From: an uncultured Candidatus Saccharibacteria bacterium
GTDB lineage: Bacteria; Patescibacteriota; CPR2_A; CG2-30-33-46; CAZGIU01
Assembly: GCA_964526535.1 (NCBI GenBank)
Contig: CAZGIU010000001.1
Span: forward strand, 1-37,263
Length of the DNA: 37,263 nucleotides
Direction of reading: 5' to 3'
The stretch's first letter is position 1; every line of letters starts with the position of its first letter. Shown here piece after piece: positions 24,817-36,003 of the stretch. Position numbers and translations under genes: made by a program. The notes below the pieces were generated by a model. That model was given only the letters and a program-made list of their open reading frames with translations, ran no database searches and had not been told where the DNA came from.

Positions 24817-25989
24817 CTATTTTTTCAAGAATCTAGTCTTGAAACTTATTTCTTTGCTAGATTCAACCTCTGGCTGATCATAGGGGTTTACTTTATTAAG
24901 CCAACAAAGATAAACAGTTAGGTAATGAAAAAACCCAGTTAAATAACCAATACTAAAATCATCTATATTTGTCATTTTAATTAATGAAGCGGGCAGTTTT
25001 CTTTTAACAGAATCATGCCAATTGCCTAAAAATTCTGCCTCCATAGCCCTTCTAAACGATAAACCATTAAGAGCCGAGAATTTTTTACCCCTCAAGGAAA
25101 TATTAATTAATGGTTTTGGTATTGTCAGTTTTTCCTTATTTTTAAAATCTGACAAAACCAAAAAAAGTCCCTGCATATTAGGTTTACCACCATAATAACG
25201 TTGATTCGAATGATGTTGAGACTCTGGAGCCGAAACAGGGATAATAGTTGGCCCTTTTTTATCTTTGCCAGAACTTTCATGAATAAGTTGCATAATCAAT
25301 TCAGCAAATCCCCATAAGCGAGCCGAATAGATTGGCATATATATTTCACCTCTTCCTTTTTTATCAAAGTAATGAAGATATTCAGCCATTTTTTGCGCCA
25401 GATTATTCTTTTTTTGAGGCAAGAAATCTTGGTAGGCTTTTTGAGCCCCTTTAACTAATTTGGTTATATCAATACCAAACAAAAAAGCTGGCAATAAAGC
25501 AGTCGCTGTTAGACCAGAAAAGCGACCACCTATTTCAGGGTGTGGCAAAACTGGGATTTTTTTTATCTTGGCTACCTGATACATAGGATTATCATCAATG
25601 GTAGTTATAAAGATTGTTTTGTATTCTTGAAAATAAAAATAATTTTCTATAACATCAATGGTTTTGCCAGACTTAGAAATAACTATTAATAATGTTTTTT
25701 TTATGGGGCATTCTTTTTTAACATAGGCCAGAAAATCAGGATCAGCTGTATCAACAAAAAAAACATTCTTTTTAATTTCATATTTAGCCAAAGATTCATA
25801 AAAAGCCCTAAAACTAGTAATTGAGCCTCCTCTGGCCGCTATTATTATATTTTGATATTTAAGAAACTTTTGGGAAAAATCTCTAATCTCTAATAGATCA
25901 GTTTTGTATTGAGCAAAGGTCGGCAATTCTTTTTTTGAAAAATCAGATGTTTTGATTTTTATTTTTTGAGAAAATTTAATTTCAATCAT
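24817..25989 (-). CDS. pgi: Glucose-6-phosphate isomerase, short form (390 aa)
   Basis: 'VISKSGKTIDV' (SKSGxT motif) and 'EIGGRFSGLTATALLPA' (PGI signature 1). Confidence 0.8.
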   Translation of the reverse strand: MIEIKFSQKIKIKTSDFSKKELPTFAQYKTDLLEIRDFSQKFLKYQNIIIAARGGSITSFRAFYESLAKYEIKKNVFFVDTADPDFLAYVKKECPIKKTLLIVISKSGKTIDVIENYFYFQEYKTIFITTIDDNPMYQVAKIKKIPVLPHPEIGGRFSGLTATALLPAFLFGIDITKLVKGAQKAYQDFLPQKKNNLAQKMAEYLHYFDKKGRGEIYMPIYSARLWGFAELIMQLIHESSGKDKKGPTIIPVSAPESQHHSNQRYYGGKPNMQGLFLVLSDFKNKEKLTIPKPLINISLRGKKFSALNGLSFRRAMEAEFLGNWHDSVKRKLPASLIKMTNIDDFSIGYLTGFFHYLTVYLCWLNKVNPYDQPEVESSKEISFKTRFLKK

Positions 25990-25990
25990 A

Positions 25991-28360
25991 CTAATTCCTT
26001 AATTTGGCTTTAAATTTAGTTTTTAGTCGTTGAAGAACTTTTTCGTGAATTGGTTTTATTTCTTCTTCGGTTAAAGTTCTATCATCTGACTGATAATATA
26101 GATGGTAAGCTAAGCTTTTTTCTCCAGTTTCTATTTGATTACCGCGATAAATATCAAACAATTCAACTTTTTTTATTAAATCGGGATTAATTTTTTTTAT
26201 TTCAGAGCTAATTTCAGCCTCTGGAATTCTCTCATCTGTAACAATAGCCAAGTCAAGAAGAATGGGTGGAAATTTCGAAAATGGCTTATAGGCTTTGTCC
26301 TTCTTTAACTTAAATAATGAACTAAAATCAATTTCTGCAATAGTTAGTTTATTTTTGAAATCAAACTTATTTTGTATACTAGGATGAAGCTCTCCCAAAT
26401 AACCAATCTTTTGATCTTCGCAAATTATATCAGCCACCCTTTGTGGGTGAAGATAACCATTTAAATCTTCCTTGGCAGTAAATTTAATCTCAGAAATATT
26501 TAATTTAGCAATTAGTTCCTCTATAGCCCCCTTGAGCTCAAAAAATGAGTTACTACTCAAGCGCCCCAGGGCAATTACTTTTTTTTCATGAGGATATTTA
26601 TTATCCTTACTTAAAAATATATTGGCAATTTCAAAAATGCCAAAATCCAAAAAATTTTTAGAATTTAAAGAAGCAATTTCTATTAAAGAGTAGGCTAAAT
26701 TTTGCCTTAAATATGTATGCTCTGGCTTAAGCGGATTTTTAAGCTCAAAATAATTCTTAGGATTATCTCCAAATGTTTGTAACAAATCATTACCAATAAA
26801 GGTATAAGAATATACTTCACTATAACTTAAGGCAGCTAAACTATCTTTTAAAAAGTAACCAAACTCACATTCCTTATTGGCTTTTGGAGCTATGTTTCTG
26901 GTTAATGGTACTGTTGTTGGAATATTATCATAGCCAATAACACGAGCAACTTCTTCAATTATATCTACGCTTTCTTTTATATCTCTTCTAAATGAAGGTA
27001 TTTTAACCTTAAGGCAGTTATTATCCTTTAAAGCTTCAAAGCCCAGGGAATTTAAAGCTGAAATAATTTTATTATCAGCAAAATCTTTGCCTAAATATGA
27101 TTTAATTTTATCAAAAGAAACATTTATTTCTTTTACTTGGCTTTTATGAAAATTAATATCTTTTTTACCTTTAATAACTAAACCACCTGAAACTTCAGCC
27201 AATAAATCAGCTGCCATTTCAAGTGCTTTTGATGTCATCTCTGGATCAAGACCTTTTTCAAATCTTACTACAGCTTCAGACCTTAGACCTAAAAGCCTAG
27301 CTGCTTTTCTAATTGCTACCCAGTTAAAATTAGCCGCTTCTAAGATAATTGTTTTAGTATTTTCACTAACTTCAGTATCTTTACCGCCCATAACTCCGGC
27401 TATCCCAATAGGCTTTTTATTATCTGCAATAACCAAGATATCTTTTGACAGTTTTCTCTTTTTATCATCAAGAGTAACAATTTCTTCACCAGACTTGGCA
27501 CTTCTTATTATTATATTTTTCTTACGACCAGCCCCTGAAAGAGTGTCAAAATCAAAAGCATGCATTGGTTGACCAAGCTCCATCATAACGTAATTAGTAA
27601 CATCGACGATGTTATTTACGGGCCTTACACCCAACACTAATAATTTATTCTTAAGCCAAGAAGGAGAACTGGAGACTTTAATATTTTCAATTACTCTAGC
27701 TTCATAGCGTGAACATATTTTTTTATCCTTTATTTCAATATCAAGCAAGTCATCAATTTTCTTAGAGGATTTTTCCTGGACCTCTTTTAATTTAGGATGA
27801 TTCATCTTTTTACTAAAAATAGCCGCTACCTCTCTGGCTACACCTAAATGAGAAAAAAGATCTGGCCTATTTGAGAGAACATCTAAGTCTAAAATAATAT
27901 CGTCAAGCTCAAGAGCCTTAAAGATTGGGGTACCAGCCTTTATATTTGAATTAAAAAAGGTAATTTCCTCACCTGACAAGTCTAAGCCTAATTCTTTATT
28001 AGAAGCAATCATCCCCTGAGACTCAACGCCCCTAAGATTACGTCTCTCAATTTTCATACCAGAAGGCAATGTGGCTGGAGCAACTACAATAGGTAATTTC
28101 TGACCAACTTGCAAATTAAGATGTCCGAAAATAATTTGAATTTTTTTTCTGCCAAAAGATATTTTAGCCACTGAAAGATTATCAGCATTAGGATGCTTTT
28201 TTATTTCAGCTATTTGCCCAACATAAACACCTTGATATAGTTGGCTTAATTTTATAATCTCATCTACTTCAACAGTAGACATAGTTAATCGATGAGCAAT
28301 CTCTTCTGCTGGAACATTTAATTTTACAAATTCTTTAAGCCAATTAATTGATACTTTCAT
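25991..28360 (-). CDS. pheT: Phenylalanine--tRNA ligase beta subunit (789 aa)
   Basis: 'MKVSINWLKEFV', an N-terminal tRNA-binding OB ('HPNADNLSVAKI'), B3/4 and B5 domains, and a C-terminal FDX-ACB domain. Directly follows pheS. Confidence 0.95.
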   Translation of the reverse strand: MKVSINWLKEFVKLNVPAEEIAHRLTMSTVEVDEIIKLSQLYQGVYVGQIAEIKKHPNADNLSVAKISFGRKKIQIIFGHLNLQVGQKLPIVVAPATLPSGMKIERRNLRGVESQGMIASNKELGLDLSGEEITFFNSNIKAGTPIFKALELDDIILDLDVLSNRPDLFSHLGVAREVAAIFSKKMNHPKLKEVQEKSSKKIDDLLDIEIKDKKICSRYEARVIENIKVSSSPSWLKNKLLVLGVRPVNNIVDVTNYVMMELGQPMHAFDFDTLSGAGRKKNIIIRSAKSGEEIVTLDDKKRKLSKDILVIADNKKPIGIAGVMGGKDTEVSENTKTIILEAANFNWVAIRKAARLLGLRSEAVVRFEKGLDPEMTSKALEMAADLLAEVSGGLVIKGKKDINFHKSQVKEINVSFDKIKSYLGKDFADNKIISALNSLGFEALKDNNCLKVKIPSFRRDIKESVDIIEEVARVIGYDNIPTTVPLTRNIAPKANKECEFGYFLKDSLAALSYSEVYSYTFIGNDLLQTFGDNPKNYFELKNPLKPEHTYLRQNLAYSLIEIASLNSKNFLDFGIFEIANIFLSKDNKYPHEKKVIALGRLSSNSFFELKGAIEELIAKLNISEIKFTAKEDLNGYLHPQRVADIICEDQKIGYLGELHPSIQNKFDFKNKLTIAEIDFSSLFKLKKDKAYKPFSKFPPILLDLAIVTDERIPEAEISSEIKKINPDLIKKVELFDIYRGNQIETGEKSLAYHLYYQSDDRTLTEEEIKPIHEKVLQRLKTKFKAKLRN

Positions 28361-28367
28361 TAAAAAA

Positions 28368-29387
28368 TTAAAACTGGTTAATAAACCTTAAGTCCCCTTT
28401 CATAATTTCCCTAATGTCTTCTATTTGATATTTAAGCATAGCAATTCGGTCTGGACCTAGACCAAAAGCAAATCCCGAGTATTTATTTGGATCATAACCA
28501 ACATTTCTTAAAACGTTAGGGTGGATCATGCCACAACCTAAGAGCTCAATCCAACCATCACCACCACAAGTTGAACATCCTTTGCCGCCACATTTAAAAC
28601 AAGAAACGTCAACTTCGGCCGAAGGTTCTGTAAACGGAAAAAAACTTGGCCTAAATTTTAATTTTATATTTGGTCCTAGTAATGACTTCATTAACTGATC
28701 TAAAGTTCCTTTCAAATCAGCAAAGGATATATTATCCGAAACAGCAAAACCTTCTATCTGATGAAAAACAGACAAATGAGTGGCATCTTCAGCCTCATAG
28801 CGATAAGTTCTGCCTGGTACAATTACTTTTAAAGGAGGTTTTCTATTTTTCATTGCTCGTATTTGAACAGGAGAAGTATGAGTTCTCATCAAAAGACCGT
28901 TGGTCAACCAAAAAGTATCCCAAGCATCTCTGGCTGGATGCTCTTTGGGAATGTTTAAAGCTTCGAAGTTATGATAATCGTCTTCTACCTCAGGGCCTTC
29001 TACAATCTCATAGCCTAAAGACTTAAAAATATTTTCTATCTCTCTAATTGTTTGGGTTATAGGATGAAGATGACCTAATTTATGCCTAATCCCCGGTTGA
29101 GTTATATCAACAAACTCTTCAGTTATTTTTTCCTGTATTAAGCCTTTTTCAAGTAATATTTTCTTATTATTTATCTCTATCTCAAGTTTTTCTTTAAGCA
29201 AATTAGCTGATTGACCTGATTTTTTACGATCCTTAAAAGCTAACTTATGTAAATTTCTTAAATAATTAGTTAGCTCACCTTTTCGACCCAAATATTTTAC
29301 TCTAACAGTCTCTAGACCGGCTATAGAAAAAACGCCATTAATCCGCTTTAAGGCTTCTTTTTCCATTTCTTTTAAATTAACCAACAT
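28368..29387 (-). CDS. pheS: Phenylalanine--tRNA ligase alpha subunit (339 aa)
   Basis: 'HPITQTIREIENIFKSLGYE', 'FEALNIPKEHPARD', 'LMRTHTSPVQIR', and class II motif 3 'GFAFGLGPDRIAMLKY'. Confidence 0.96.
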   Translation of the reverse strand: MLVNLKEMEKEALKRINGVFSIAGLETVRVKYLGRKGELTNYLRNLHKLAFKDRKKSGQSANLLKEKLEIEINNKKILLEKGLIQEKITEEFVDITQPGIRHKLGHLHPITQTIREIENIFKSLGYEIVEGPEVEDDYHNFEALNIPKEHPARDAWDTFWLTNGLLMRTHTSPVQIRAMKNRKPPLKVIVPGRTYRYEAEDATHLSVFHQIEGFAVSDNISFADLKGTLDQLMKSLLGPNIKLKFRPSFFPFTEPSAEVDVSCFKCGGKGCSTCGGDGWIELLGCGMIHPNVLRNVGYDPNKYSGFAFGLGPDRIAMLKYQIEDIREIMKGDLRFINQF

Positions 29388-29388
29388 C

Positions 29389-29763
29389 TTATTCCTTTCT
29401 GGCTAAAAAATAAAATTCCAATAATAGAATTGATATAACAAATAAAATACCATCAAAGATATTTAATATTTTAAGGGCTTGCAAGCCCAAAAGACCTACA
29501 AAGGCAAAGGTCACTAATAAAGCTTGACGGAAAGAAACTGTAATATTTTCATAATAATATTCATTGGAAGAAAACCATAACCTTAAATAAAAACCAATAA
29601 TAGTTAAACTCCCCACTAAAGCAAAAAATAAACTACCAAAAAAACTAACAAGTCCCCAGGCACCAGTATTTTTTGGATCAAGATTTAATAATGTTAAAAC
29701 CCAGGCAAGCCAACATAATGCTGTAGAAATAGCTATGCCAATTATATAAGCAGAAAGTGTCAT
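29389..29763 (-). CDS. Hypothetical 4-TM membrane protein (124 aa)
   Basis: Four hydrophobic segments (IIGIAISTALCWLAWVLTLL, GLVSFFGSLFFALVGSLTIIGFYL, ALLVTFAFVGLLGLQAL, ILFVISILLLEFYFL). ATGA overlap with the upstream coiled-coil gene. No family recognised. Confidence 0.55.
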   Translation of the reverse strand: MTLSAYIIGIAISTALCWLAWVLTLLNLDPKNTGAWGLVSFFGSLFFALVGSLTIIGFYLRLWFSSNEYYYENITVSFRQALLVTFAFVGLLGLQALKILNIFDGILFVISILLLEFYFLARKE

Positions 29764-30476
29764 AAGCTTTCTTTTATCTCTCTATCAATTTCTTTTAGGA
29801 CCTTTTGAGCCACTTCAGCATATTTTTTATTCTTTAGTGACTCTCTAATTTCTCTATCACGCTCCTCTAAGTCACGTAATTTTCTGGCTTCCTGCTTAGT
29901 TTCTTCAATCTTTTTTTGAATTAAATCAGCTTTTTCAAAAACTAGTGGTTTGCCCATAAGCTTTCTCTCAATTTCTTTAAGTTCCTGCTCAATTTTATCT
30001 TTTTTGTCCTCTAAAACCCTTAACTGTTCGGAATTTCTTAAGCCCAAGTTAGCAGATATTTTATCTCTTTCTATTAAATTATTCTTGACCCTAACTTTTT
30101 CATCATAACGCATATCCTTCAAACAAATGGGACAGTGGGGATCCGGATCCTCTAAAAGTTTTATTTTAAGATCAAACTCCTGGCTTCTCTTTTTAAGAGC
30201 CTGATTTGATTCTTTTATCTTAGAAATGCTTTCTTTTAGATTATTTAGAAACCTCTCTTTAGAAATTTTTTCTTCTTCAGACTTTTTTATATTAGTCTTA
30301 TCGCTTTTTAAATTATCAAGCTCGATCTCTAAAGAAGAAATTTCATCAATTTTACGCTCAAGGCTTCCTAATTTAAAAGAAATCATTTCCTGTTCCATTA
30401 AAAGCTTGCGCCTTTCCAGGCGGATTGTATCTTCCAGCTCTTTTTTCATTTTTTCCAATTTAGCTAACCAATTCAT
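29760..30476 (-). CDS. Head-less coiled-coil protein with a central CPIC (Rad50/SbcC zinc-hook-like) motif (238 aa)
   Basis: K/E/L-rich heptad-like sequence throughout, interrupted at the exact midpoint by 'EDPDPHCPICLKDM' (Cys115, Cys118). These are the only Cys residues. No Walker motifs and no TM helix. Confidence 0.6.
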   Translation of the reverse strand: MNWLAKLEKMKKELEDTIRLERRKLLMEQEMISFKLGSLERKIDEISSLEIELDNLKSDKTNIKKSEEEKISKERFLNNLKESISKIKESNQALKKRSQEFDLKIKLLEDPDPHCPICLKDMRYDEKVRVKNNLIERDKISANLGLRNSEQLRVLEDKKDKIEQELKEIERKLMGKPLVFEKADLIQKKIEETKQEARKLRDLEERDREIRESLKNKKYAEVAQKVLKEIDREIKESL

Positions 30477-30485
30477 AGTAATATT

Positions 30486-31517
30486 TTACTCCCCAAGTTG
30501 AGGCTTATCAACTTCAGCCACCTCAATCTGTTTCTTTTTGTTATCAGAAATTTTTAAAATGTCTTTATCAACTTTTTTTAATTCTTTATAGGCTTTATTA
30601 TAGGTTGTTACAGTGGTTGATAAATTAGAACCAACTTTTTTAAAGTATTCATCGTAAGCCAAAAGGTGCCTATCTAGATTTTGAACATTTTTAAGAATAT
30701 CTTTGACAGACTCTTCAATTTCCAATGAGCGTAAGCCCTGAAGAACTGTTTGCAAATAAGCAGCAAAAGAAGTTGGTGAAACTATAATTACTCTTTTTTC
30801 TTTAAAGGCATATTCTATTAAATCTCTGGTATTAATCTTAACTGCTCCCACTTGATTTACCAATAAATCATAATAAATACCTTCTGAAGGAATAAACATA
30901 AAAGCAAAATCCATGGTTCCCTCATTTGGTCTGATGTATTTAGCGGTTTCGTCGATTCTATTTTTTAGATCTTGTTTGAAAATTTTCTCAAGTTCTTTTC
31001 GTCTGATTTCTGATTTCTCAGTCATAATTTTATTGTAATTTTCCAAAGAAAATTTTGAGTCAATTGGAATAATTTTCTTATCTTTAACAAAAATTACAGC
31101 ATCAACAATTTGTCCATCTTTAAACTGATATTGAATTTTATATTGACTTGGGTTAAAAAGATTTTTAAGTAAGGCTTCAAGATAATACTCACCTAAAATT
31201 CCTCTTTGTTTCGGATTTTTTAAAATATGCTCTAGCCCCTGAAGTTGTTCGGTAATTCCAACAACCTGTTTATTGGTATCTTCAAGTTTAGTTAATTTTT
31301 CAGTAACATCTTTAATTATGCCAACGGAGGCCGTAAACTGTTCAGTAACCTTCTTATCCAATTGATTTTGAACTTGGGAAATCTGCTGTTGCAACATCAG
31401 AATACTTTGATCGTCTTTCTGTGTTTTGTTAGCATCAATCCTCTTGGTTAAAAAATAAGTCAAGCCAAAAAATCCCGCAGAAATAACTATTATTAAAATA
31501 AGAATATCGCTATTCAT
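30486..31517 (-). CDS. rmuC: DNA recombination protein RmuC (membrane-anchored, 343 aa)
   Basis: N-terminal TM helix 'ILILIIVISAGFFGLTYFL', a coiled coil, 'KQRGILGEYYLEALL', 'VDAVIFVKDKKIIPIDSKFSLENY', 'FAFMFIPSEGIY', and 'VIIVSPTSFAAYLQTV', all characteristic of the RmuC family. Confidence 0.88.
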   Translation of the reverse strand: MNSDILILIIVISAGFFGLTYFLTKRIDANKTQKDDQSILMLQQQISQVQNQLDKKVTEQFTASVGIIKDVTEKLTKLEDTNKQVVGITEQLQGLEHILKNPKQRGILGEYYLEALLKNLFNPSQYKIQYQFKDGQIVDAVIFVKDKKIIPIDSKFSLENYNKIMTEKSEIRRKELEKIFKQDLKNRIDETAKYIRPNEGTMDFAFMFIPSEGIYYDLLVNQVGAVKINTRDLIEYAFKEKRVIIVSPTSFAAYLQTVLQGLRSLEIEESVKDILKNVQNLDRHLLAYDEYFKKVGSNLSTTVTTYNKAYKELKKVDKDILKISDNKKKQIEVAEVDKPQLGE

Positions 31518-31525
31518 TAGCTTTA

Positions 31526-31534
31526 ATTATAGCA
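31526..31534 (-). promoter_or_regulatory. Extended -10 element (TGcTATAAT) 8 nt upstream of the rmuC ATG
   Basis: The minus-strand reading is atcTGcTATAATtaaagctaATG. There is no Shine-Dalgarno sequence. The geometry predicts a leaderless or near-leaderless mRNA. Confidence 0.45.
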
Positions 31535-31589: not shown

Positions 31590-32516
31590 CTAAAAAAGCA
31601 CGAAATTTGATTTTTTTAGTTTTTCAGAATCTTTTTTAATTATCTCTAAAAGCTCATCTATTCTTTGATAACTTTTTTCATAATCAGACTGTATAGCGGA
31701 AGAATCTATAGAGACAAAAGGATTATCGATACTTGAAAGAGCCTCTTGATTACCATTCTCAATGGCCAACGATAACTCTTTAACTGTTTTTAAGACTTTA
31801 TCGTGAGTTTCTTTCATACTTTGAGGTACTTTTAATCTCTCTAAAGCTTCTTGCCACCTTTTAACTGGATTTTTAAGAGCTACTAGGCCTTGCTCTTTAT
31901 TTAGGGCAGATAAGTCTTTATTGTTAAGCTTACGAGATTCATTTAAAGCGTCTCTGAAGAAATCTAAAGCACTATTAAACAAATCAATACTATAAATACC
32001 TTCTTCTGAGAGTTTTTCCCCAAGCTCCAGATACTCCTTAATATCATTTGATAATTGCTGAGTTTTTTTTGGAGAAGTTAAATTAGATAGAACATAAAGA
32101 TTAGCCTCTGCTTTAGTTTTAATTTTGTCATATATTTCTCTTTGATCTTCTAAATCTTTAGTTAAGGAATATAGCTTATTCTCATCAAAATTAACTGCAT
32201 TATCATAAATTTCTTTATTATCAAGACCAGTTAACCAAACCTCAGAAGCTATAATAATTTCATTAACTTTTTCGGAATAGAAAACCACCCTAGAACCATA
32301 CCAAAAACCATATAAAACAATTCCAAGAATTATTAAGACAAAAAAACTTATTATAATAACTATTTTTTTTATATTACTTGGAGGTAAACTATTGTAAGAA
32401 CTGCTGTTAAAACTTGGTTGCATCTGGCCAGTATTGGCCTGGTTAAGTTGAGTAGATTGATTATTGTTAGGATTTATTTGCCTAGAAAGACCATCAAGGT
32501 TTAAATTATCGGTCAT
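31590..32516 (-). CDS. Single-pass membrane protein, paralog B (308 aa): N/Q/S-rich N-terminal tail, TM helix, helical ectodomain, C-terminal KKSNFVLF
   Basis: Paralogous to 32600-33475. Shared motifs are 'YGFW.GS', 'KEY..L', 'P..(A/M)K(D/E).HDK(L/V)(I/L)K', 'NPF/DPF' and terminal 'LKK(S/T)NFVLF'. The start is set at ATG 32516 (MTDNLNLD), preceded by AAGGAGAAAA exactly as in paralog A. The track's TTG start at 32552 overlaps a TATAAT box. Confidence 0.6.
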   Translation of the reverse strand: MTDNLNLDGLSRQINPNNNQSTQLNQANTGQMQPSFNSSSYNSLPPSNIKKIVIIISFFVLIILGIVLYGFWYGSRVVFYSEKVNEIIIASEVWLTGLDNKEIYDNAVNFDENKLYSLTKDLEDQREIYDKIKTKAEANLYVLSNLTSPKKTQQLSNDIKEYLELGEKLSEEGIYSIDLFNSALDFFRDALNESRKLNNKDLSALNKEQGLVALKNPVKRWQEALERLKVPQSMKETHDKVLKTVKELSLAIENGNQEALSSIDNPFVSIDSSAIQSDYEKSYQRIDELLEIIKKDSEKLKKSNFVLF

Positions 32517-32566
32517 TTTTCTCCTTGCTTTACTTATCATATTATACAACAAAAAAAATAAAAAAA

Positions 32567-32588
32567 TGCCCCAAGCTAGCTTGGGGCA
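32567..32588 (-). terminator. Strong intrinsic terminator between the two paralogs
   Basis: 22-bp perfect palindrome TGCCCCAAGC|TAGCTTGGGGCA (GC-rich 9-bp stem). On the minus strand it is followed by TTTTTTTATTTTTTTT. It lies 11 nt after the paralog A stop. Confidence 0.85.
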
Positions 32589-32599
32589 CCTCCTTGTTA

Positions 32600-33475
32600 T
32601 TAGAATAAAACAAAATTGGTTTTTTTAAGTTCTGGGGCTTCCTTTAGAATTTCATCTTTTAGAGATTTAATTCTATTCTCTTTATCTTCGAGATATTTAG
32701 ACATTTCGTCAAAAGGGTCTTCTATATCATTAAAAATATCGTAGTTACCATCCCCTAAGGCTTTGGTAACATCTCCTACCAATTTGATTAATTTATCATG
32801 AACATCTTTGGCACTTTCAGGGGGAGTAATTTTTTCAAGTTCATCTAACCAATTATTAAACATCTTCTCCATCTCAACCATCATTTCATCCTCTGAAGAT
32901 GAGGAATACATTAAATCAGACATACCTTCAACTACACCAACAGTAGCTTCCATAATTTGAATTCCATATTTAGAGGATTCTCCGAACTCTTTAGCTAATT
33001 GGGTGTATTCTTTTAAATTCTTGCCTAAACCAGAAGCCTTGCCTGGTACCCCTTTTTTAGCAACTTCTTGATAATACTTATCAATTTCGGTAGCAAATTC
33101 TTCTGTCTCATCTTTTAATTTTTTAAGCTCAGCATCAAAAGAACCACTGGCAAACTGATCAAAACTTAAAGAACTTAAATCACTATTCTTTAAAACTTCT
33201 ACCTTCTTTTCAATGTCATTAACAATTTCTTCTGCTCTAGTAGCATAAGAAGCTACTTGCGAACCATTCCAAAAACCATAGCCAACAACAGAAATTAACA
33301 AAACAACTGCTACAACAATTCCAATCAAAATATTTTTATTAGGACCTGAGGAACCACTGCTTGGCATGCCTTGTGGTGGCTGACTGCCAGGTGGCATAAA
33401 ACTAGAATCCTGAGCTGGGGGCATTGGCGCCTGAGTTGGCTGTTGAGGCACCTGGGGATTTAAATTTTCCGCCAT
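32600..33475 (-). CDS. Single-pass membrane protein, paralog A (291 aa): P/Q-rich N-terminal tail, TM helix, helical ectodomain, C-terminal KKTNFVLF
   Basis: 'MAENLNPQVPQQPTQAPMPPAQDSSFMPPGSQPPQGMPSSGSSGP' followed by TM helix 'ILIGIVVAVVLLISVVGYGFW'. Shine-Dalgarno AAGGAGAAATT before the ATG. No family recognised. Confidence 0.6.
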   Translation of the reverse strand: MAENLNPQVPQQPTQAPMPPAQDSSFMPPGSQPPQGMPSSGSSGPNKNILIGIVVAVVLLISVVGYGFWNGSQVASYATRAEEIVNDIEKKVEVLKNSDLSSLSFDQFASGSFDAELKKLKDETEEFATEIDKYYQEVAKKGVPGKASGLGKNLKEYTQLAKEFGESSKYGIQIMEATVGVVEGMSDLMYSSSSEDEMMVEMEKMFNNWLDELEKITPPESAKDVHDKLIKLVGDVTKALGDGNYDIFNDIEDPFDEMSKYLEDKENRIKSLKDEILKEAPELKKTNFVLF

Positions 33476-33489
33476 AATTTCTCCTTTTG

Positions 33490-36003
33490 TTAATTATTTT
33501 TTATATTATATAGTAAATCTTGTTTATTAACAACAAATTTCTCACCTTTTTTGATTTCATCTTTAATAATTTTATCAGCTAAAAAGTTTTCCAAAATATC
33601 CTGAATAGCCCTTCTCATCGGCCTGGCACCAAACTCAGGCTGATAACCTTTTTCAATCAAAATATTTAAAACATCTTTGTTAATTTCAATTAAATAACCC
33701 TTGCTTTCAAAATCTTTTATCATTTTAGCAATTATATTTTTAGCAATTTGTCGTAGATTATCTTGAGTAAGCGGTTTAAACATTACAACCTCATCGAAAC
33801 GATTTAAAAACTCTGGCGTAAAAATACCTTTTTTCTGAAGAGACTCAAAAACCTCTTCTTTAAGATCTTGCCAATCTCTATTTTTAGCTAATCCCTCTCT
33901 TATCATATTAGCCTCAGCATTAGAAGTTGTAATAATAATTGAATTTGTAAATTTAACTATATTGCCCATGCCATCTTTAGTGTAGCCTTCATCAAAAATT
34001 TGAAGAAAAATATTGAGAATATTTTTATGAGCTTTTTCGAGTTCATCTAATAAAATTACAGAAAAGGGTTTTTGCTTAATTTCCTTAACCAATTGCCCGC
34101 CCTCAAGCTCATCTAAACCTGTTTGTTTTTGACCCAAGAAATCTTTAATTGAGGAGGGTTCTTGATATTGATTCATATCCATTCTAATGATAGCTTTTTC
34201 ATCACCAAAATAAGACTGAGCTAAGGTTTTAGCAACTTCTGTTTTACCAACTCCTGTCGGACCTAAAAACAAGAAAACTCCAATAGGCCGAGCCGAATCA
34301 TTAACCTGAGCTCTCTTCCTTTTAAGAGCGTTAACAATAGCCGAGATGGCCTCATCTTGGCTTACTACTCTTTGGTGCATAACCTCTTCTAACTTCAATA
34401 AAGAATTTTTTTCTTCTTTTGCAACTGTAGCAACTGGGATCGATAAAATACCTTCACAAACTCTACTAACTATCTGTTTATCAATTACATCCAAGCTATC
34501 TCTTTTAGCGCAAGAAATTACATTTTCCATTAAGTCTATGGCTTTGCGAGGAAATTCTCTATCATCAATAAATTGATCAGCTATCCGATAAATTTCCTTT
34601 AAAGCATTGTAGGTTAGTCTAACTTGATATTTACTGAAAAAATAAAGGCTTAAGTCAGCCAAAACCTTAATAGTTTGATCTTTGGTTGTTGGCGGTATCT
34701 TAATATTTTCAAATAAACCTGCAAAAGAAGATTTAGGCGAAAGATAGGATTCATAATTTCTTTGAGTAGTAGCGCCAATTACCCTAATCTCACCCGACTG
34801 AAGATAAGGACTTAAAACTTCGGTGGCATCCACAGCCCCAACCTTTCCATTGCCACCTTGAAATAAAGTATGAATGTTGTCGATAAATAAAATTATATTA
34901 CCAGCCTGGGCTGCATCTTGGAGAACCATTATAAGCCTTTGTTGAATTTCTTGAGGATTCTGAACTCCAGCCACTAAAGCTTCAGTGTTAAGCTGAATAA
35001 TTCTCTTGTGTTTTAACTCTTTTGTGGTTTCATAACTAAAAAGCTTAGCAGCTAAAGCATTAACAATGGTTTTTTTGCCTGAACCCGGCTCACCAATTAA
35101 CAAACAATTATTATTACCGGGCTTAGAAAGTACAGTTTCTATCTGAGAAATAATATGTTTTCGGCCAACTACATAAGATTCATCAAAAAATTTCGGACCA
35201 TTAATATGCATACCATAGATATCTAAATATAAGGTGTAACCATAAGCCCAGTCTTCACCAATACCAGTAACATTAGTTTTAAGTTTTTCAATTAAAGGTT
35301 TTTGATATTTAGCTTTATTAAAAACTGAGTTAGCCCAAAATAAGATATTCCTAATATCATTTAATTCTAATTCTAAAGTAGCGCCAAAGCTATCAAAATC
35401 AGGTAAAAGTTTAATAAAACCATAAAAAATATCAGCTGTCGTTAATCTTTTTTCTCCTTCAGCCAAAGCACTCTCTATAGAGTTATCTAAAATCAGACCT
35501 AGAGATTCTTGACCATTTGAAGCTGAAATCTGAGTTAAGATTATTGATAGATGACTATCGGTAACACCCATTTCGTTTAAAGCAAAAATTACTCTTTTAG
35601 ATGAAACTATGTCAGAAAAAAGTTTACCCAAATCACAGTTATTAAGATCATACTTGCCAAAAATTCTGGCTACTTCCAAATCAGCTATGGCAAAAACATT
35701 AAAGTTATTTTTGTCTGGTGAGATTTCCCTTAACCTCTCTTCTTGGCGAAAATATAATCTTAAAAAGACATAAATAATAAAAGATTTTACTCCTAAAAAT
35801 CCTAAAAATTTAAAAACATAGATCAGGGCTTCAAAATTAACCAGCTTTAAATAATCAAGCAAAATTAAAATATATGAAAAAATACCTAATAACCAAATTG
35901 CCTTTAAAACAATGAAAATATTCTCAGATTTAAAATAATGCCACAAATTAGCAGTCTGAATATAACTATAATCTTTTTGATAATCTATTTGATATTTGCT
36001 CAT
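33490..36003 (-). CDS. Membrane-anchored Hsp100/Clp-like double AAA+ protein (837 aa); D1 degenerate, D2 intact, no M-domain
   Basis: aa 27-85 are hydrophobic (2-3 TM helices). Clp_N-like repeats follow. D1 reads 'LLIGEPGSGKKTIV...ILFIDNIHTL...VIGATT...FPRKAIDLM'. D2 reads 'FLGPTGVGKTE...VILLDELEKAH...ITTSN...EFLNRFDEVVMF...GARPMRRAI'. Confidence 0.85.
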   Translation of the reverse strand: MSKYQIDYQKDYSYIQTANLWHYFKSENIFIVLKAIWLLGIFSYILILLDYLKLVNFEALIYVFKFLGFLGVKSFIIYVFLRLYFRQEERLREISPDKNNFNVFAIADLEVARIFGKYDLNNCDLGKLFSDIVSSKRVIFALNEMGVTDSHLSIILTQISASNGQESLGLILDNSIESALAEGEKRLTTADIFYGFIKLLPDFDSFGATLELELNDIRNILFWANSVFNKAKYQKPLIEKLKTNVTGIGEDWAYGYTLYLDIYGMHINGPKFFDESYVVGRKHIISQIETVLSKPGNNNCLLIGEPGSGKKTIVNALAAKLFSYETTKELKHKRIIQLNTEALVAGVQNPQEIQQRLIMVLQDAAQAGNIILFIDNIHTLFQGGNGKVGAVDATEVLSPYLQSGEIRVIGATTQRNYESYLSPKSSFAGLFENIKIPPTTKDQTIKVLADLSLYFFSKYQVRLTYNALKEIYRIADQFIDDREFPRKAIDLMENVISCAKRDSLDVIDKQIVSRVCEGILSIPVATVAKEEKNSLLKLEEVMHQRVVSQDEAISAIVNALKRKRAQVNDSARPIGVFLFLGPTGVGKTEVAKTLAQSYFGDEKAIIRMDMNQYQEPSSIKDFLGQKQTGLDELEGGQLVKEIKQKPFSVILLDELEKAHKNILNIFLQIFDEGYTKDGMGNIVKFTNSIIITTSNAEANMIREGLAKNRDWQDLKEEVFESLQKKGIFTPEFLNRFDEVVMFKPLTQDNLRQIAKNIIAKMIKDFESKGYLIEINKDVLNILIEKGYQPEFGARPMRRAIQDILENFLADKIIKDEIKKGEKFVVNKQDLLYNIKNN

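Follow-up and report, generated by a model that had tools for sequence, protein, structure and literature searches.

SbcC and Rad50 are ATPases whose heads carry Walker A, signature and Walker B motifs, and whose zinc hooks join them apex to apex, two CPxC pairs sharing one Zn2+. To our knowledge, the hook and the coiled coil have always been studied as parts of these ATPases. RmuC is a "recombination-limiting" protein whose mechanism has been unclear for over two decades, and we know of no RmuC partner outside the accessory proteins of the Pseudomonas Shield system. Here we analyse a stretch of 37,263 nucleotides (nt) from an uncultured Candidatus Saccharibacteria bacterium (contig CAZGIU010000001.1; hereafter the window), in which rmuC is followed, on the minus strand, by a gene for a 238-amino-acid (aa) coiled-coil protein with a central CPxC motif (the hook protein) and by a gene for a 124-aa protein with four transmembrane (TM) helices (the 4-TM protein). 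An original prediction, made from the sequence alone, had described this trio as RmuC, a Rad50-like zinc-hook coiled coil without ATPase heads, and a coupled membrane protein. On re-reading the window sequence, the minus-strand coordinates of the three genes, the 9-nt gap between rmuC and the hook open reading frame (ORF), the positions of the two cysteines and the overlap of the hook TGA with the 4-TM ATG (ATGA at 29760-29763) were all correct. The three genes are:

30486-31517, minus strand: rmuC, 343 aa (ORF list and Pfam PF02646)
29760-30476, minus strand: hook gene, 238 aa, helical (ORF list, profile search, register check, BLASTP and AlphaFold2)
29389-29763, minus strand: 4-TM gene, 124 aa (ORF list)

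We find that the 238-aa protein is very probably a head-less homolog of the hook-proximal ~230 residues, both arms and the CPxC apex included, of the ~850-aa SbcC/Rad50 of Patescibacteria type. Its similarity to the SbcC/Rad50 hook region is collinear over ~230 residues centred on the CPxC, and its model adopts the same two-armed helical hairpin. Two further landmarks are shared, namely a break in the helix near residue 175 (L[LM]GK) and a [DK][YF]A..Q motif near residue 219, and the position of a nuclease gene directly upstream recalls that of sbcD before sbcC. By contrast, the heads of SbcC/Rad50 are missing, hence there is neither an ATPase nor a DNA clamp; the coiled coil has only ~43% of the length found in the ~850-aa SbcC relatives; and the adjacent nuclease is RmuC, of the PD-(D/E)xK class and membrane-anchored, in place of the phosphoesterase SbcD/Mre11. 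Lacking both heads and an SbcD partner, the 238-aa protein is in our view not a member of the full SbcC/Rad50 ATPase family; it appears to descend from the hook and coiled coil of that family and would work like them. Phage Rad50-like subunits (T4 gp46 type) are 500-1400-aa ATPases with heads, and their likeness to the hook protein is confined to the coiled-coil hairpin. The SMC-type ATPase heads of Lamassu LmuB and Wadjet JetC also set these apart from the hook ORF, which gave only weak coiled-coil matches to them (E=1.9e-4 and E=0.073, respectively) and no ATPase domain.

The RmuC-like protein ShdA of the Shield system has an N-terminal TM helix, a coiled-coil stalk and a nuclease core (PMC10270631; PMC10542128). 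The RmuC of the window is ShdA-like in architecture, with an N-terminal TM helix at residues ~5-24, a coiled-coil stalk at ~30-110 and the nuclease core, and is a full RmuC-family protein, as its Pfam RmuC match (PF02646) covers residues 45-322 with E=4.4e-51 and 174.1 bits against a cut-off of 26.

Homology of the hook protein to SbcC/Rad50

The sole cysteines of the 238-aa protein, C115 (nt 30132-30134) and C118 (nt 30123-30125), lie within LLEDPDPHCPICLKDM, at relative position 0.48-0.50 of the chain. A word-indexed search recovered 12 close homologs, every one of them 238 aa long (54-100% identity), among which the motif LL-x-x-P-x-P-x-CPxC-x-K-x-MRYD is conserved. An exhaustive search of 1.84 billion representative proteins with a profile built from 12 orthologs (threshold E<=1e-3) gave 71 matches, mostly proteins of ~850 aa in which the whole profile falls on residues ~315-550, the best E-values for full-length SbcC reaching 1e-15. 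The remainder comprised three clusters of head-less proteins, 238, 239 and 243 aa long, together with short sequences of 160-500 aa; the latter resemble fragments of full-length SbcC genes from short contigs and were not counted as independent head-less families.

Local re-alignment placed the CPxC of the profile on a CPxC in every match, at relative position ~0.50 in the full-length ones, and the motif L..[DK][YF]A..Q, ~105 residues past the hook, proved common to the 238-aa family and full-length SbcC. Three of the long matches carry Pfam AAA_23, Rad50_zn_hook and SbcC_Walker_B. Two head-less relatives score 24.0 bits (P0014) and 18.2 bits (P0016) with the Rad50_zn_hook model, whose gathering threshold of 24.3 bits is not reached by the window protein either. 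The best full-length match, P0017, is annotated as coming from a Patescibacteria bacterium and has sbcD directly upstream of its gene. BLASTP aligned the window protein with P0017 at 72.8 bits (E=8e-19, 26% identity over 236 aa, 57% positives), residues 6-235 falling on residues 315-544, while the other coiled-coil segments of P0017 gave at most 21 bits. Profiles of single arms, with the hook removed, were found in register in 27/32 (N-terminal arm) and 20/21 (C-terminal arm) full-length SbcCs, against matches in 3/43 and 1/43 for the reversed decoys.

The hook register, the identity of the matches, the within-protein control and the arm-only control together argue for true homology to SbcC/Rad50, which bears out the original description of a Rad50-like zinc-hook coil. 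Weak matches to the middle of Rad50 (E=1.7e-3), LmuB and SbcC-like (4.8e-4) models in NCBIfam, PADLOC and PHROGs were not used for this purpose because of coiled-coil bias; the search of the whole library with the family profile took their place, along with the register controls. The absence of heads agrees with the Pfam scan of the 238-aa protein, in which no AAA_23, SMC_N or SbcC_Walker_B match was detected. Two homologs had already been labelled "SbcCD ATPase subunit" by automated annotation pipelines.

Predicted structure and conservation of the hook protein

The AlphaFold2 model of the hook protein, built with the 12-sequence alignment, has a mean predicted local distance difference test score (pLDDT) of 90.4 and consists of a helix at residues 2-108, a loop at 109-123 and helices at 124-173, 176-215 and 221-237. 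Two arms of matching length (107 and 114 residues) flank the sole long non-helical loop, and the CxxC stands at the apex of this antiparallel two-armed coil, as is characteristic of the Rad50 hook region. The reversal of the coil at the CxxC, anticipated from the sequence, is therefore found in the model, which is of hairpin type and not straight. In Foldseek searches against the PDB, generic antiparallel coils came out on top (SH3BP5 and Smc arms, the latter at a TM score of ~0.5), with Rad50 (5gox) at rank 20 (E=0.036), while in a viral structure library the best neighbours were phage Rad50/gp46-type endonuclease subunits (E=9e-5, TM score ~0.48 on the query).

We collected 22 distinct hook sequences of 235-243 aa, all intact and with conserved start and end positions. 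C115, P116 and C118 are invariant in all of them, so that the CxxC noted in the window is also a feature of its orthologs. Residues 1-30 at the N-terminus, 111-120 at the apex and 221-230 at the C-terminus are the most conserved, and the mid-arms the least; functional sites at the apex and at the open hairpin base would be expected to produce this pattern. The corresponding regions are:

30387-30476, minus strand: N-terminal end of the hairpin base, residues 1-30 (entropy 0.87-1.11 bits, against 1.6-2.1 bits in the mid-arms)
30108-30152, minus strand: hook apex loop, residues 109-123, EDPDPHCPICLKDMR, non-helical in the model, with the codons of C115-P-I-C118 at 30123-30134
29763-29822, minus strand: C-terminal end of the hairpin base, residues 219-238, YAEVAQKVLKEI, of low entropy and holding the L..[DK][YF]A..Q motif

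Synonymous sites were saturated between the window and five relatives, and the evolutionary rate of the hook protein is about double that of RmuC or PheS (non-synonymous divergence, dN, of 0.23-0.44 against 0.13-0.26). Since synonymous divergence (dS) was saturated or undefined in every pair, the argument for selection is based on intact frames and conserved sites and not on dN/dS; at the level of sequence, these show the 238-aa ORF to be a real, selectively maintained protein.

Gene neighbourhood of the rmuC-hook pair

The RmuC encoded next to the hook gene is apparently membrane-anchored and active, as judged from its sequence. Across 12 RmuC sequences of related loci, D139, D153, K155 and E212 do not vary, and they presumably belong to the catalytic motif, given what is generally known of RmuC and of the restriction-endonuclease-like fold:

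31053-31103, minus strand: putative PD-(D/E)xK residues of RmuC, D139 ... D153-S-K155, invariant in the 12 RmuC sequences

The hook-bearing loci fall into clade A (the window, L001-L005, L011 and L013) and clade B (L006, L007, L014, L024 and L025), and only a few uncultured lineages of the Candidate Phyla Radiation (CPR)/Patescibacteria contain the family. In both clades, rmuC is immediately upstream of the hook gene in 13/13 non-redundant loci having upstream sequence, and the 4-TM gene and then pheS lie downstream of it. The synteny with rmuC, first seen in the window, is thus kept in relatives whose hook proteins share only 26-29% identity with that of the window; in the same clade-B loci, RmuC, the 4-TM protein and PheS are 33-37%, 41-49% and 48-51% identical to their window counterparts, respectively. 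Upstream flanks differ by clade, with two TM paralogs in clade A and DUF5679 and TIG/fn3 genes in clade B. The hook gene is always accompanied by both neighbours, rmuC and the 4-TM gene, each of which is also found without it.

The better-conserved 4-TM protein was used as a probe for relatives with a different gene in the upstream slot, which revealed the following arrangements:

L023: rmuC, 4-TM gene and pheS, with a 30-nt gap and no hook gene
L020: sbcD (414 aa), sbcC (688 aa, with heads and a CPLC hook), 4-TM gene, pheS and pheT
L021: AAA ATPase gene, 4-TM gene and pheS
L027: UDG gene, 4-TM gene and pheS
L018 and L019: 4-TM gene and priA, without pheS and without hook gene

The complete sbcD-sbcC of L020 (metagenome contig FWWM01008686.1, L020:1597-5369) occupies the slot of rmuC-hook upstream of the 4-TM gene, pheS and pheT, an arrangement that may represent a cassette swap between two nuclease-plus-hook pairs. 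In L026, sbcD-sbcC stands downstream of an AddA-like gene, as rmuC-hook does in L014 and L025. SbcD is encoded beside full-length SbcC in both L020 and L026, whereas the hook gene of the window has RmuC upstream instead. This positional parallel between sbcD-sbcC and rmuC-hook is suggestive. In single-gene neighbour-joining trees, L020 and L023 branch beside the hook-bearing clade B, and the RmuC of L023 is clade-B-like. An in-situ origin of the hook gene from an sbcC of the L020 type was not adopted, as the SbcC of L020 resembles the hook family only weakly (E=0.011). The AddA-like genes, of UvrD-helicase/PDDEXK_1 type, lie at L014:1-2817 and L025:18-1793, a few genes upstream of rmuC-hook, and at L026:457-3369, L026 being the Patescibacteria contig of the best full-length SbcC match.

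A possible partnership with RmuC

A plausible, if tentative, reading of these data is that the hook protein is a partner of RmuC, namely a zinc-dimerising, head-less SbcC hairpin docking on the RmuC stalk. Each 238-aa chain would fold back as an antiparallel coiled-coil hairpin ~15 nm long, and two hairpins would be joined apex to apex by one Zn2+ shared by their CPxC pairs, as in Rad50/SbcC hooks. Docking on the coiled-coil stalk of RmuC would occur through the open hairpin base (residues 1-30 and 219-238), where SbcC has its ATPase heads, with residues 1-30 as a candidate docking surface. The result would be a nuclease with a zinc-hook bridge, an analogue of SbcD-SbcC lacking ATP-driven clamping, and this bridge would link two RmuC molecules or tether DNA near them at the membrane. 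Docking through coiled coils has been proposed earlier for the RmuC-like ShdA (PMC10542128). We are more doubtful that the rmuC-hook pair, with its hook on a membrane-anchored nuclease, constitutes an ATP-independent functional counterpart, possibly an evolutionary replacement, of SbcD-SbcC in this CPR lineage, as the positional parallel might suggest.

Our literature search yielded no paper in which RmuC is connected with a zinc hook and none on a head-less hook protein. The fixed adjacency to rmuC suggests the hook protein as the first candidate partner of RmuC and provides a testable hypothesis for the organisation of RmuC at the membrane. A stand-alone, conserved hook hairpin, small, soluble-looking and confidently predicted, would also be a clean system for addressing the role of the hook and coil alone. 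It may further show how CPR bacteria, with their reduced genomes, reassemble the processing of DNA ends or hairpins from a minimal set of parts. If the pair is indeed an ATP-independent counterpart of SbcD-SbcC, RmuC gains its first identified partner and the hook hairpin becomes a portable module, reusable with nucleases other than Mre11.

Several observations weigh against this proposal. Concerning the hook itself, the Pfam scan of the 238-aa protein returned no family at E<=1, Rad50_zn_hook included, and a PDB sequence search with the family profile returned nothing at E<=10; Foldseek against the PDB gave no match better than E=1e-3, an outcome that agrees with a hook but does not discriminate; and zinc binding is assumed from the CPxC motif. 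Concerning the link with RmuC, the whole block of rmuC, hook gene, 4-TM gene, pheS and pheT is conserved, and the adjacency is therefore not specific to the rmuC-hook pair. Inheritance alone can keep synteny in compact CPR genomes. The L023 locus, with rmuC and no hook gene, implies that RmuC does not need the hook, and the hook family is tiny in comparison with the very widespread RmuC. The partnership, like the other functional statements made here, is drawn from sequence and gene order within the few uncultured lineages that carry the family.

Alternative readings

The 238-aa protein could be a genuine head-less hook that works independently of RmuC, either as a zinc-dependent scaffold or by hook-to-hook contact with a full-length SbcC encoded elsewhere, thereby modulating or tethering SbcCD, with the adjacency to rmuC reflecting inherited gene order. 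We consider this possible, though rather unlikely. The conserved block does extend into the functionally unrelated pheS and pheT, L023 carries rmuC without the hook gene, and full-length SbcC proteins with a compatible CPxC hook exist in Patescibacteria and in the related lineage L020; yet the hook gene never occurs apart from rmuC in any of the 13 informative loci, over two deep clades with differing upstream flanks. A search of the 37-kb window for SbcC and SbcD was negative, which also speaks against such an interplay and says little on the whole genome. The proposal of a hook docking on RmuC has likewise to be set against the view that the 238-aa ORF is a decaying, functionless remnant of sbcC. 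Its correspondence to an internal SbcC fragment and its rate, about twice that of RmuC or PheS, would fit decay, whereas the 22 distinct intact frames of near-constant length, with an invariant CPxC and conserved termini despite saturated synonymous divergence, would not, and on this sequence record a pseudogene is effectively excluded.

A further reading assigns the trio to a membrane complex in which the hook is anchored by, or signals through, the 4-TM protein, both regulating RmuC. The 4-TM gene follows every hook gene, with the ATGA overlap in 7/7 clade-A loci and gaps of 0-8 nt in most clade-B loci. This tight spacing is however general along the gene run, and the 4-TM protein is better conserved than the hook at equal divergence (41-49% versus 26-29%). 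AlphaFold2 predicts it as four long helices forming a four-helix bundle (pLDDT 82.5), without known fold neighbour (best E=2) and without family in Pfam, NCBIfam, PADLOC or PHROGs. The 4-TM gene is kept before pheS when UDG (L027), an AAA ATPase (L021), rmuC alone (L023) or sbcD-sbcC (L020) lies upstream, and before priA in L018 and L019; it is consequently tied to pheS and not to the hook gene. The coupling of the 4-TM protein to the hook, as originally suggested, is thus not supported, a three-part complex appears improbable, and the function of the 4-TM protein is most likely connected with pheS or the membrane, not with the rmuC-hook pair. In divergent CPR lineages, pheS is nearly always preceded by this small gene, irrespective of the gene before it. 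We also weighed an anti-phage or anti-plasmid defence module, Shield-like or Lamassu/Wadjet-like, to which a PADLOC RTasRmuC match on RmuC (E=1.6e-13) and the weak LmuB match on the hook ORF could point, RmuC domains being active in the Shield system (PMC10270631). The RTasRmuC match is however only domain-level, which does not place the locus in Shield, and that of LmuB covers the coiled coil alone, the ATPase being absent. The Shield accessories ShdB-E, such as the M15-peptidase-like ShdB, are different proteins, unrelated to a zinc-hook coiled coil (PMC10270631), and none is present here. Shield ShdA sits in a defence island, whereas the rmuC of the window has housekeeping neighbours (ClpB-like, pheST, PGI, sugar-nucleotide genes and UvrA) in a synteny that is stable over deep divergence and not patchy like a defence island, and our search of viral contigs found no relative. 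Given this gene context, the different Shield accessories and the absence from viral contigs, the defence-island reading was rejected as very improbable.

Gene run and promoter-like motif

The genes around the rmuC-hook pair belong to one tightly packed minus-strand run, in which pheS starts 1 nt past the 4-TM stop, pheT follows 7 nt past pheS, and PGI, sugar-nucleotide genes and uvrA lie downstream of pheT. The remaining features are:

33490-36003, minus strand: ClpB-like AAA+ gene, 837 aa (ORF list)
32600-33475 (291 aa) and 31590-32552 (320 aa), minus strand: two paralogous single-TM genes (ORF list)
31526-31534, minus strand: putative promoter-like motif of extended -10 type, TGCTATAAT, ending 8 nt before the rmuC ATG
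28368-29387, minus strand: pheS (ORF list; Pfam label via syntenic loci)
25991-28360, minus strand: pheT (ORF list; Pfam label via syntenic loci)

The trio had been credited with its own promoter. The motif does stand at its 5' end, and TGnTATAAT occurs upstream of rmuC in 7/7 clade-A loci, often directly after a terminator hairpin; the trio is not self-contained, however, as the genes continue into pheS-pheT with gaps of 1-7 nt. A generic promoter scan of the window did not list the site at 31526-31534, and promoter-like sites were not enriched relative to shuffled sequences, so that the putative promoter function of this motif is derived from its conservation. The distance from the motif to the rmuC ATG is 8 nt in the window and ~7 to ~20 nt in relatives. 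Because 8 nt after TGnTATAAT are too short for a Shine-Dalgarno sequence, the arrangement suggests a leaderless or near-leaderless rmuC mRNA.

The tandem proteins of 320 and 291 aa encoded upstream of rmuC each have a Q/P/S-rich N-terminus, one TM helix and a helical domain, and end in a common C-terminal KK[ST]NFVLF; a strong bidirectional terminator-like hairpin (32560-32595) separates their genes, and pairs of similar ~300-aa genes are also found upstream of rmuC in L002 and L013. The ClpB/ClpC-like double-AAA+ protein (33490-36003) shows two strongly hydrophobic segments in its first ~85 residues, which suggests a membrane-anchored Clp-type unfoldase, and an 841-aa gene resembling it lies upstream in L013. 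The gene after pheT (24817-25989, minus strand) encodes a 390-aa PGI-family isomerase in the window and in L001, the PF00342 match being weak in the window. A cupin-type glucose-6-phosphate isomerase (GPI; PF06560, ~260 aa) takes its place in L003, L011, L013 and L020, in what looks like a non-orthologous replacement of glucose-6-phosphate isomerase.

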